64,000 nucleotides of DNA from Octopus vulgaris (lineage: Eukaryota). Position 1 is the stretch's first letter. The number at the start of each line of letters is the position of its first letter. The translations under genes and the position numbers were made by a program. The stretch is taken from NCBI GenBank assembly GCA_951406725.2, contig OX597834.1, forward strand, positions 42,470,001 to 42,534,000, read 5' to 3'. The notes under the pieces are model-generated. The model saw only the letters and a program-made list of their open reading frames with translations, searched no databases and was not told where the DNA came from. Below are positions 601-64,000 of the stretch, one piece after another.

Positions 601-880
601 CATATATACATATAAATATGTATACATATATATATATATACATATATATATACATACATATATATGCATATGTACACATATATATATGTAATGTATGTAT
701 ATACATATATACATACATATAGTATGTGTATATATGTACATAATAAGCAATTATACACATACTAGATATATATTAATGTATATACATACATACATGCGTA
801 TAGGAGTGCACGCATGTACACATATGCATACGCATATACTTACAGGCACACATGCATACATACATACATACATACATTCA

Positions 881-970
881 TACCTACCTACCTACCTACC
901 TACCTACCTACCTACCTACCTACCTACCTACCTACCTACCTACCTACCTACCTACCTACCTACCTACCTA
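881..970. repeat. (TACC)n microsatellite
   Basis: Perfect TACC tandem run within (TACA)n. Confidence 0.95.
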
Positions 971-998
971 CATACATACATACATACTTACATACATA

Positions 999-1340
999 CA
1001 GTAAAAGAGTCGCGGTTTCAAAGCGACGAAAATATTTTGAAAAATTAAATTAAAATGTTGATGTGAATGTAACGGCATCGTGGGTTTTTAAATGGCGAAT
1101 AAACACCTTCGACGCTGCAATTTAGATCCCAAGTTGTTATTCCCGACTCCCAGGAGTTCAAGCGACTGATAGCGCAGGATACTCTTTTAATGGAACTATG
1201 CTCTGTTCGACGATGAAATTTCGAGCTGGGGCCACACCGAGTTATTTTCGATTGAGTGGACAAGAACTTCGGAAATGAAAGGAACTTTCGCCGAAGAATA
1301 AATCACCCGCCTTTGACAAACATGCAGCTGAAGAACTTAC
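999..1340 (+). mobile_element. Decayed copy of the hammerhead-like element family also at 63006-63303
   Basis: 999-1123 aligns by eye to 63119-63244 (GTCGCGGT..AAAGCGACGAAAATATTTTG..AAATTAAA..TTAAATGG..AAACACCTTC.ACGCTGCAATT). The 5' core is degenerate (GTAAAAG). Right boundary is approximate. Confidence 0.65.
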
Positions 1341-6734: not shown

Positions 6735-7000
6735 AAGTGGCTCAGTGGTTAGAGCGTCGAGTTCACAACCATGAGGTAGTGAGCTCGATTCCCAGGCCGG
6801 ACTGTGTTGTATTCTTCAGCAGGGCACTTTAGTTCACGTTACTCCAGTTCATTCAGCTGCAGAAATGAGTGGCGATGTCACTGGTACCAAGCTCTGTCGG
6901 TCTTTGCCTTACCCTTGGATGAGATCAGTGACGTGGTGAGGGAAGGCTGGTATGCATGGGCAACGGCTGGTCTTCCATAAACAACCTTGCGCGGACTTAT
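6735..7000 (+). mobile_element. tRNA-derived SINE (family D-type head and core, different tail)
   Basis: A box TGGCTCAGTGG, B-box-like GCTCGATTCC, CORE-like TTCTTCAGCAGGGCACTT..CTCCAGTTCATTCAGCTG..AAATGAGT. Confidence 0.75.
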
Positions 7001-7179
7001 GATAGATAGATAGATAGATAGATATTTACATGTATATAGAGACACAGACGTGTATGCATGTACACCTGGGCTTATGCATGTTTATCTACAGAGTCAAAGA
7101 GTGAATACGCGAGAGAAGGCGAGAGAGCGACAGAAAGTCTCATAGATGCATACTCCATAAGCAGATGTATATGTATATA

Positions 7180-7370
7180 TGAGAACGCCATGTTGAATCG
7201 TTAGCTCCTGCACGCATTTTTTTTCTCTCCTTGTTTCTTTTCTGTGTATCTTTCTGTCGAAAAGCATAGGCTCGAAACGTAAAAAACTTGTTTTATTTCT
7301 ATTCCTGAGCGCCATATTAATACTCCACCTGCCTTCGTCTTTTGTTTATTTTCGTAAACCTTCCCGTTAT
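7180..7370 (+). mobile_element. ~190 bp non-autonomous element with a variant hammerhead-like fold
   Basis: Homologous to 53958-54135(-). TCTTT-CTGTCGA-A-AAGC-ATAG-GCTC-GAAA-CG-TA-AAAAA at 7249-7286; (TA)n flanks. Confidence 0.65.
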
Positions 7371-7403
7371 ATATATGTATATATACAGATGCATACTCCA
7401 TAA

Positions 7404-7460
<57 letters not shown>

Positions 7461-8100
7461 TAGATAGATGCATACTCCATAAGCGTATATATATATATAT
7501 ATATATATATAGTCGCAACCACATACAGATAAATACTGCATGTGTAGAACAACCTGCCTAAATCCGTAACAATATACTCGGGCGTTATTCCTTAATACAT
7601 TTTTATTGTTTGTCATTTCATGTGAAAACAAACAATACAGAAAATATAACAAACACACAAACAAGGGAATAACGGAAATAACACACACAAAATATACAGA
7701 TTAAGAAAATAAAAAAGACGCGCGCTGAGAATTCTTCGACATAGCCCAGGGGACAGTATATTATATTCTGTAAGACGTATATTTCTGCTTATTTACTTAT
7801 GTATTTATTTATGATTTCATTCTAAATTCTATGTATTATTGTTGTTGTTATTGTCGTTGGACTTCTTCTTCTAGGTCTTTTAATATTATTATTATTATTA
7901 TTATTATTATATACAACCACGAGCATAAATATATTTAAATAAACGATGATGTATACGGTTGAGTGCTGGTATATATATATATATATGTATGTGTAAATAT
8001 ATATATATGCATGTATAAATATATGTATGCATGTATATAGATATATGTATGTATATATATATATATAATAGAAATATTAAAATTACTAAGTCTCTCTAAA

Positions 8101-8142
<42 letters not shown>

Positions 8143-8259
8143 GTATGAGTCTGGCCATGAAGAGCTATGTTAGTATTGAAGTATGTGTGTGCATATGTGT
8201 GTTTATATACACACATCACAGATACATTCATATATATATATATATACGTACATCTTTAC

Positions 8260-8303
<44 letters not shown>

Positions 8304-8737
8304 ATCTATCTATATCTATCTATGTATCTAACTATCTCTGTCTCTCTATCTAGATACGTATATATAGATACACACAAACACACACACACACACACCCACA
8401 CACACACATATATATATATACATATATACATACATCCACACACACACACACGCACATATATATATATACATACATATATACATACACACACACGAACACT
8501 ACAGAAATAGACACAGACACACACACACACAAACACAGACAGAAACGGACACAGACACACTAACAGAGACACACTTACTCACACACACGCGCGCGCAGGC
8601 ACACTCACACACCCATGTACACATTCCTACGGCATTTACTTTGTCATGCATTAGTATGTACACACATCCATGCAACCACGTGCATGTATACCATATATCA
8701 CATGGACTAAAATGCGCATAGCACATATATGTATATA

Positions 8738-11832: not shown

Positions 11833-12008
11833 ATTATTTACATTCGCCGGATATTTGTCCTCATCTTGTTTGTTGTTAACACAACGTTTCGGCTGATATG
11901 TTCTCCAGCCTTCATCAGACACCTGATGAAGGCTGGAGAGTATATCAGCCGAAACGTTGTATTAACAACAAACAAGATGAGGACAAATATCCGTCAAATA
12001 TAAATAAT
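11833..12008. mobile_element. Fold-back of two head-to-head hammerhead-bearing segments (86 bp arms, 4 bp spacer)
   Basis: 11833-11918 is the reverse complement of 11923-12008 with few mismatches. Confidence 0.8.
11919..11962 (+). ncRNA. Minimal hammerhead-like motif
   Basis: ACAC-CTGATGA-A-GGCTG[GAGAGTATAT]CAGCC-GAAA-CG-TT-GTAT. The inverted copy has GTGT, which would pair perfectly with ACAC. Confidence 0.65.
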
Positions 12009-62300: not shown

Positions 62301-62974
62301 GAGTGGTGAGAAAAAGTGTGACTGAGATTTGGTAAGAACAGCTGTGGAGATAAACTGCGCCTAAGATGGCGGTACAAAAGTTGTGATAAAAACAAAAACA
62401 TAGCAACGACAACAACGACAATAAGAAGAAGAGAAGTAGTGATCGCTCAAGCTGCTAAACATAGCAGACTAATCTCCTTTCCCAAGGTCTTATCTAACTG
62501 TATTACAAAAAAGATTTTAAAAATTTCACTGGACGACAACGGAAAATACACACACAAGACATGGCAATGCTCTTCCCTCATCAGTGATCATCCGAAAATC
62601 ATTACGATTTCGAGCCTTTATCTTACACACAGAGAAATACAATAGACTGCTTCGTCTGATTTAACTATTGTCTGAATAGAAAACTGAATGAATGGTGGTC
62701 ACCAGTGGAACGTCTTTGACATAAATCATAACGACATATATCCTAGGGTTAAACAACAGCAAAAATAAATATCATCGGTAACTGCAGTAAAACAACAGTC
62801 ACGAGAAAAACAACAACAATAAAAAAATCAAGGCAAAAACACCATCAAATATAACAATATAAGGATGAAGGGCAATGTCGCCTTCACCAGAATATGATCA
62901 CAGTACGTAAAGACGGACAGAATGCCGCTAAGAATTTTGCCTGACGTGCTAACGACTCTGCCTGCTTACCGACC

Positions 62975-63005
<31 letters not shown>

Positions 63006-63008
<3 letters not shown>

Positions 63009-63301
63009 TGCAGCGTGGAAGGTGTTTGTAAGCCATTTAAGAAACACACAAAAGCCGTTCGATTCACTTCAACATTTAAGTTTAATTAAGTTTAATCCGT
63101 GCTGCACGCATTTTTTGTCAGTGAACAGGTCGCGGTCTTAAAGCGACGAAAATATTTTGGCAAATTAAACTTAAATGTTGAAGTGAATCGAACGGCTTTT
63201 GTGTGTTTCTTAAATGGCTTACAAACACCTTCCACGCTGCAATTGTTTTCGTTTCAGCACACGATCTCAAATCAAATCACTTGCTATGCAAGTACATCTC
63301 C

Positions 63302-63303
<2 letters not shown>
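63006..63303 (+). mobile_element. Non-autonomous element in (TAA)n with perfect 82 bp inverted partial copy
   Basis: 63006-63087 is the exact reverse complement of 63163-63244; (TAA)n on both sides. Confidence 0.85.
63114..63164 (+). ncRNA. Hammerhead-like motif with G3-C8 swapped core
   Basis: TTTGTCA-GTGAACA-G-GTCGC[GGTCTTAAA]GCGAC-GAAA-ATAT-TT-TGGCAAA. Confidence 0.65.
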
Positions 63304-63336
<33 letters not shown>

Positions 63337-64000
63337 TTAATAATAATAATAATAACTTGCCCTGATGTAATACCAGGCAGTGGCTCTCGTAGCTTCTGAT
63401 CTTAACTGATTGGAAGTGTTATCATATATTGTTTTGTCTTGGTATAAAAGATGGGCTACAGCAAATATTCTGCTCAATACCACAGATTTGCTTGTCAGTT
63501 GTTTGACCTTAACCAGTTGCTGACGATGTGTGCATCTCTGACCACAAACAGGAGTAGTGGGGGAGCATCATAGCCGTGTGCTGAAAGGAATTCTTTGAGG
63601 TTTGGATAACTCACCTCTGGAAACATGGGTGTTTCATTCAACATCCTTAAACAACCCTTATTCAGGGACGTTTTGAGCAGGAGGATACATATGTAGGTAT
63701 GTGTGTATGTACATTTCTTTCACCGCTCTTTTAATCATTTCTCTTTTATTTATTTATGCATTTTATTCTGTCTAATTAACTAAATAATTAATTAATTTTA
63801 CTTTTTAATGATATTATGTATTATTTGAGTTTATCATTTGAATTTATTTCAATTTTTCTCAAAATGAACGAATAATTCACAATTTATACAAAAATTTATC
63901 TATGATATGACATTGTTAATTATTTTTGTTACGTAAATAATTAAAACTATTGTCTACGCTAAGAAAGTTTAAATTATTTTGCGAATTATGTTTATAAAAT

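Follow-up and report, generated by a model that had tools for sequence, protein, structure and literature searches.

The stretch of Octopus vulgaris DNA analysed here (64,000 nucleotides in all; hereafter, the window) contains a hammerhead motif in which the canonical core nucleotides C3 and G8 are replaced by G3 and C8. Judged by its sequence context, the motif is a 5'-UTR hammerhead within the pseudo-LTR (pLTR) of an EN+ Penelope-like element (PLE) of the Neptune (or Nematis) type, designated family A. G3-C8 is the family A state. Comparison with related families in the same genome indicates that this pair is derived from C3-G8 by changes touching positions 3 and 8 exactly, and that it is older than family A. 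The initial annotation of the window had proposed a natural hammerhead with its 3-8 pair swapped, and the proposal is borne out by the family-wide state, by its age, and by C3-G8 standing within the same helices of homologous families.

The motif (Table 1) has the three-way junction with helices I and II, by sequence and by folding, and U4, G5, A6, A9, G12, A13, A14, A15.1-U16.1 and H17 are all present, whereas the canonical C3 and G8 of CUGANGA are absent. Every annotated element (helix I, GUGAACA, the extra G, helix II, GAAA and the UUU site) was found where it had been placed, and the core departs at exactly positions 3 and 8, reading GTGAACA against the CTGAAGA of homologous families. The two positions are Watson-Crick complementary in both, as G-C in the window motif and C-G in the homologous families. 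In hammerheads the 3-8 Watson-Crick pair places nucleotide 8 so that its 2'-OH sits in the active site. A palindromic helix III had also been claimed; it is present, but the palindrome (AAAAUAUUUU) is longer than the A-AUAU-U originally described. The minimum free energy of the motif was -13.2 kcal/mol (z -2.27; 7 of 200 shuffles were equally good), with pairing probabilities of 0.98-1.0 for helix II and for the five innermost helix I pairs; at position 63160, where the window copy has G, 133 of 156 aligned copies have A. Closure of A15.1-U16.1 in the monomer costs 5.4 kcal/mol. G3 shows a competing pairing with U17 (p=0.67). A dimer through the palindromic helix III AAUAUU is possible, the double-hammerhead fold having -24.2 kcal/mol, but extended pairings are more stable: an extended palindrome of 8-10 bp beats the active 6 bp helix by 1.8-2.4 kcal/mol and buries A14 and U17.

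A strict descriptor accepting any Watson-Crick 3-8 pair matched the window at this motif and at one canonical motif, with no matches in 300 shuffled windows (38 Mb). That standard searches would miss the motif was correctly foreseen, as Rfam returned no hammerhead family among 7 matches at E<=10 over 62950-63300. Across the whole window Rfam gave 640 matches, the 150 listed being miRNA families on microsatellites, all under gathering scores, and the repeat finder output was likewise dominated by microsatellites. A second, canonical minimal hammerhead lies at 11870-11925 on the minus strand (CTGATGA-A, a GGCTG/CAGCC helix II region, then GAAA CG TT); it sits inside a short inverted repeat and looks like a solo repeat of another Penelope-like family.

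Table 1. Features of the window insertion and related copies (window positions, except for the family B example).
Feature	Position	Strand	Basis or remark
Decayed, older 3' region from another copy of the element, with a damaged core	809..1127	+	70% identity over 339 columns to a family A element
(AAT)n microsatellite, left flank, insertion target	62976..63008	.	Sequence; family copies usually adjoin (TA)n or (AAT)n
Inverted, 5'-truncated second pLTR copy, short-tail end	63006..63087	-	82/82 identical to 63163-63244
Scrambled 5' junction (short duplication and small inversion)	63088..63103	.	Sequence
Hammerhead motif of minimal type I form, comprising helix I, core, helix II, GAAA and palindromic helix III	63114..63164	+	Sequence, folding, descriptor match
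Helix I strands	63114-63120 / 63158-63164	+	7 bp, one U-G wobble from G63160
Core GUGAACA	63121-63127	+	Sequence
G3 (C in canonical hammerheads)	63121	+	G in 155/156 aligned copies; homologous families B0/C carry C
C8 (G in canonical hammerheads)	63126	+	C in 137/156 aligned copies, G in 14/156
Extra G after core	63128	+	Sequence
Helix II GUCGC/GCGAC	63129-33/63143-47	+	Sequence
GAAA	63148-51	+	Sequence
Palindrome AAAAUAUUUU; central AAUAUU would be helix III between two RNAs	63149..63158	+	Folding
AUAU	63152-55	+	Sequence
U16.1	63156	+	Sequence
U17	63157	+	Sequence
Predicted self-cleavage site, after U17 of the UUU triplet	63157..63158	+	Hammerhead numbering
Element ORF start (MAYKHLPRCNCFRF...), ATG at 63214, ending at the element's long 'tail' end	63214..63303	+	Similar to the N-terminal end of the sister family B protein (MTIPKYNNICFNTR...)
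(AAT)n microsatellite, right flank	63304..63355	.	Sequence
Family B motif example	L163:2129-2182		

In the window, the element has inserted into (AAT)n as a typical solo copy, with an inverted short arm, a scrambled junction and a forward long-tail copy; PLE insertions typically carry inverted 5' copies (PMC8557442). The inverted arms are perfect over 82 bp, as first described, and the youth read from them fits, the copy matching the family majority at all 116 non-diagnostic sites. It has no AGATGC, the likely element start site, and is probably a dead insertion. For the copy near 999, which is older, a G3 start had been cited; its core, GTAAAAGA, does begin with G (at 1001), but neither G5 nor C8 is present, nor is the 5' helix I strand, and so it lends no support to the swap.

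The element itself carries a single ORF that combines an RT with GIY-YIG, a 1,025-codon open frame with GGAIG, YVDD and YIGET, about 1 kb upstream of the motif; the motif then lies about 50 nt before an ORF start, the ORF restarting downstream at 63214. [quoted passage not shown] The linker before GIY-YIG has CX3CxxC (CQSNCAVC at residue 896), of the CX2-5CxxC type common to Neptune and Nematis. In family A the pLTR is accompanied by an inverted copy truncated at its 5' end, and there are two alternative 3' ends (a tail), copies ending at about +85-93 or about +143-151 from the predicted cut; such a tail pattern has been tied to internal reverse-transcription starts (PMC11167929). Tandem pLTR-ORF-pLTR units occur in sister family B (L163-L166), and none were found in 13 long family A loci. 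A search pattern leaving the 8 core letters open gave 6,792 matches in the 2.8-Gb genome (control, 2), a downstream anchor gave 7,892, and a generic G3-C8 descriptor gave 8,639 (163 in the control), for a copy number of about 7,000-8,600. When the genome was searched a second time at the protein level with a distant relative, none of the 51 candidates scored (of 7,876; all at 34-36%) was closer than families A and B would give. Two loci show more complex arrangements: at L282 (C25:40.82 Mb) only about 20 nt or less separate a family A tail from an inverted family B terminus, a nested or joint insertion of both families, and at L121 (C2:171.239-171.246 Mb) three G3-A8 copies stand at 3.4-kb spacing, the two that were retrieved lying in repeated units, so that they are no full-length element.

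We examined the letters at positions 3 and 8 across the family. In one fixed context (n=2,632) there were 2,351 G3-C8 copies, 191 with G3 and another letter at 8, and 90 without G3; none of these 90 was C3-G8, and 11 were C3-C8. The genome-wide consensus thus agrees with the initial annotation. The pair was also found in 93 of the first 100 of the 6,792 core-free matches and in all 13 long ORF-bearing loci, and in assembled contigs from four runs of three other organisms no other letter reached 4% at 63121 or 63126. Between family A subfamilies, loop II differs at 6 of 9 positions and the core with its helices at 1 of 42, a U-A to U-G wobble; compared with the non-hammerhead UTR (7 of 60 changed) this constraint is not significant (p=0.14). 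An origin of the swap in coding overlap was rejected: a frame of about 68 codons across the motif is out of frame with the real ORF start.

The direction of the change was taken from old relatives. When the canonical core was demanded within the same helix II, 3 relics were found; a looser pattern gave 39 matches (control, 12), of which 30 were fetched. The 3 relics (L343-L345) and most of the fetched loci (L347-L376) have CTGA(A/T/G)GA-G within TGTCA/TGACA and GTCRC/GYGAC helices, and most of those fetched are old PLE copies of the form TGTCA CTGAAGA G GTCRC...GYGAC GAAA NNNN TY TGACA, with a homologous ORF start. Because CUGAAGA persists, within matching helices, in these old relatives from this one genome, the swap reads as the derived state. 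Among 14 hand-picked cross-family rows, which are related and not independent events, positions 3 and 8 pair in 14 of 14 (CG 7, GC 6, UG 1), and helix II is 100% paired, with one change on both sides.

An ancient sister family, A0 (157 matches; control, 1), with copies at a median of 23% off their own majority, shares the swap: the first 100 of its matches comprised 72 G3-C8, 1 G3-G8 and 0 C3-G8. A0 was first found via the G3-C8 descriptor, and a motif-less relative could have escaped; a sample of 30 loci anchored only downstream gave the same majority with no G at 8, several of these loci being cut short ahead of the core. Between A0 and A, the letter at position 7 differs (C/A), loop II has been exchanged and helix III has gone from AAUU to AAUAUU, palindromic throughout. 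In the adjacent UTR the two families differ at 12 of 47 positions, and among constrained positions (two CpG-decayed columns being taken as unchanged) at 0 of 33 (p=0.001; with the 20 positions left free by the search pattern, p=0.013). This conservation points to selection on the active-site pair.

Copies with a broken pair bear upon whether cutting is needed. C8-to-G change is about 5-fold commoner than expected from G3-to-C (41 G to 8 A at position 8, counted on the first 86 matches listed, versus 11 C to 24 T at position 3; p=3e-6). Contig C16 carries 50 of the 62 matches to one sub-lineage, and of the 31 lying within C16:0.6-9.3 Mb, 28 are G3-G8. The 3' flanks of this G3-G8 sub-lineage were distinct in the 24 copies examined, two pairs being alike only through simple repeats; therefore, the 3-8 pair is not needed for insertion. 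G3-G8 is dead as an engineered single mutant (PMC11167929), yet its source here transposed, and so a source with a broken pair has spread. Within the C16 sub-lineage (0.6-9.3, 39-54 and 55.6 Mb; L287-L292, L323-L342), G8 and C8 alleles occupy separate regional clusters; these look like local spreading of a retroelement, and 29 of 34 copies examined run on upstream, far above the family average. In a poorly resolved tree of 129 copies, the 26 G8 tips were unclustered (24 steps, shuffled mean 24.1). G3-G8 was also considered as a surviving evolutionary intermediate and rejected, later reversions being more likely with 10 of 100 in the oldest A class and 1 of 100 in the older A0.

The 5' ends of 75 downstream-anchored copies showed no pile-up at the predicted cut: 35 start 56-63 nt upstream of it and 3 within 5 nt. 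An untemplated G was present on 22 of 36 copies stopping at AGATGC, and may be read as a copied cap, in which case these copies would come from capped, uncut RNA. A splice acceptor behind the AGATGC pile-up was set aside, not firmly, as the cap fits better (one shared extra G, varied letters before). The region upstream of TTCTC-AGATGC in family A (e.g., L061-L090) does contain CTAAC...TTTCTCAG, which resembles a branch point followed by a 3' splice site, and this likely start is also preceded by a (TACA)n-rich spacer that is conserved. Sister family B is very young (3,385 matches, 55% protein identity to A, intact 1,312-codon frames, tandem repeats); its core is C3-G8 but mostly has C at position 9, A9 being seen in 3 of the first 100 of the 3,385 matches. 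A single insertion can have arms that disagree at position 8 or come from different subfamilies (L288, L292, L329, L335 and L170), and such an insertion may have used two RNAs or may have been converted later. For the anole PLE, cleavage was reported not to be needed for insertion in vitro (PMC11167929).

We consider it probable, with some reservation, that the motif still self-cleaves after 63157, weakly, and probably only when two RNAs are paired via the palindrome or when the element protein takes part. In its favour, the engineered C3G/G8C double change partly restores cleavage, also in a PLE hammerhead. A CUGAAGA ancestor would have changed at both 3 and 8, keeping a Watson-Crick pair. 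Transcripts would start at the capped site about 60 nt before the cut, and most single capped transcripts would stay uncut and be copied into short solo repeats. Cutting would matter in dimers or in tandem read-through RNA, where it could yield unit-length or circular templates or remove the cap. Selection would then hold the catalytic geometry over long spans, and single bursts would not need it. An efficient monomer ribozyme that cuts most transcripts in canonical style is very improbable; helices I and II are long and stable, as it would need, but the cost of closing A15.1-U16.1 stands against it, as do the thousands of copies made from RNA holding the whole motif up to its capped end and the reported inactivity of minimal PLE hammerheads as monomers (PMC4209133).

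Alternatively, the fold may be kept for a non-catalytic job of the 5' leader, such as protein binding, dimerisation through the palindrome or translation control, with no useful rate of cutting. The spread of G3-G8 sources, the loss of A9 in family B and the lack of copies piling up at the cut would all suit such a role, and arms of single insertions stemming from different RNAs (L288, L292) would suit RNA pairing; it is nonetheless unlikely, as A0, A, B0 and C all retain the unpaired core letters U4, G5, A6, A9, GAAA and the tertiary 3-8 pair, with position 7 free to vary, which is a catalytic signature and not a secondary structure alone. Still less likely is a vestigial hammerhead in which two chance changes became fixed in one master element and were carried without selection. 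Young as they are, the family A subfamilies offer little statistical power (p=0.14), and lineages with G3-G8 and A9C do amplify, as a vestige would allow; but the sole two core changes restore a pair, A0 and A agree at all 33 constrained positions but not at 12 of the 47 next to them, and helix III is still palindromic after a 2-nt change in length.

Family A closely resembles the PLE pLTR hammerheads of Cervera and de la Pena (2014, PMC4209133), which are type I with an extra nucleotide between 9 and 10.1 and G10.1-C11.1, have a tiny palindromic helix III and a pLTR site, and occur in thousands of solo or inverted copies; in the text available, the minimal forms are inactive as monomers and cut, poorly, as dimers. 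Their cores are C3-G8 and a covariant U3-A8 (about 1,300 matches, Schistosoma), whereas family A has G3-C8. Natural 3-8 covariation, as here, was likewise described by Perreault et al. (2011, PMC3088659), U3-A8 alone being named in the portions available, and five G3-C8 heptamers had no match in 11 supplementary files of that paper. That the double swap partly rescues engineered hammerheads, as the initial annotation stated, is in print (PMC11167929, PMC8495972): Frangieh et al. (2024, PMC11167929) report that C3G/G8C partly restores cleavage, protein-assisted and also in the anole PLE, single mutants being dead. Their anole Poseidon (PAc) mutant shares with family A the same two changes, the PLE context, and an ORF start and tail downstream; in PAc, however, the ORF begins at stem II, while the family A motif lies wholly upstream of the ATG and the swap is the wild type of a multi-thousand-copy family. 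With the Neptune and Nematis EN+ PLEs (Craig et al., 2021, PMC8557442) family A shares the RT, the CX2-5CxxC linker, the C-terminal GIY-YIG, the inverted 5' copy, the optional tail and the microsatellite targets; its tail is about 60 nt and theirs 30-40, and the clade was placed by features, not by a tree. In the portions of the literature searched, including PMC11014351, PMC10085705, PMC6155905, PMC7229834, PMC3884650, PMC8495972 and one 2026 preprint, natural G3-C8 was not found; Lunse et al. (2017), Hammann et al. (2012), Martick and Scott (2006) and supplement file 1 of PMC4209133 lay outside that scope, and any of them may list it. Within that literature, hammerheads of PLE repeats and natural U3-A8 are already known, and G3-C8 appears solely as an engineered mutant. 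As far as we know, what is new here comprises the canonical homologues that share the scaffold, family A0, the G3-G8 lineage that transposes, and the cap signature.

The role of hammerheads in Penelope-like elements is an open question in the field. The largest collection of PLE hammerhead variants, that of Lunse et al. in 2017, reportedly numbers about 150,000. We suggest, tentatively and at rather less than even confidence, that G3-C8 may be a third natural, selected active-site pair, which arose from C3-G8 in one retroelement lineage and has long been held, with one genome having C3-G8, G3-C8, G3-G8 and A9C in one scaffold; PLEs may tune the ribozyme down, such that weak cutting is kept while cutting-dead variants burst briefly, uncut RNA being the insertion template. 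With matched natural variants in one scaffold, at known copy numbers and ages, it becomes possible to compare how fast a variant cleaves with how well it transposes. Should G3-C8 prove active, a third natural pair would have to enter the hammerhead core consensus, and searches with CUGANGA or Rfam would undercount ribozymes (8,639 descriptor matches here).
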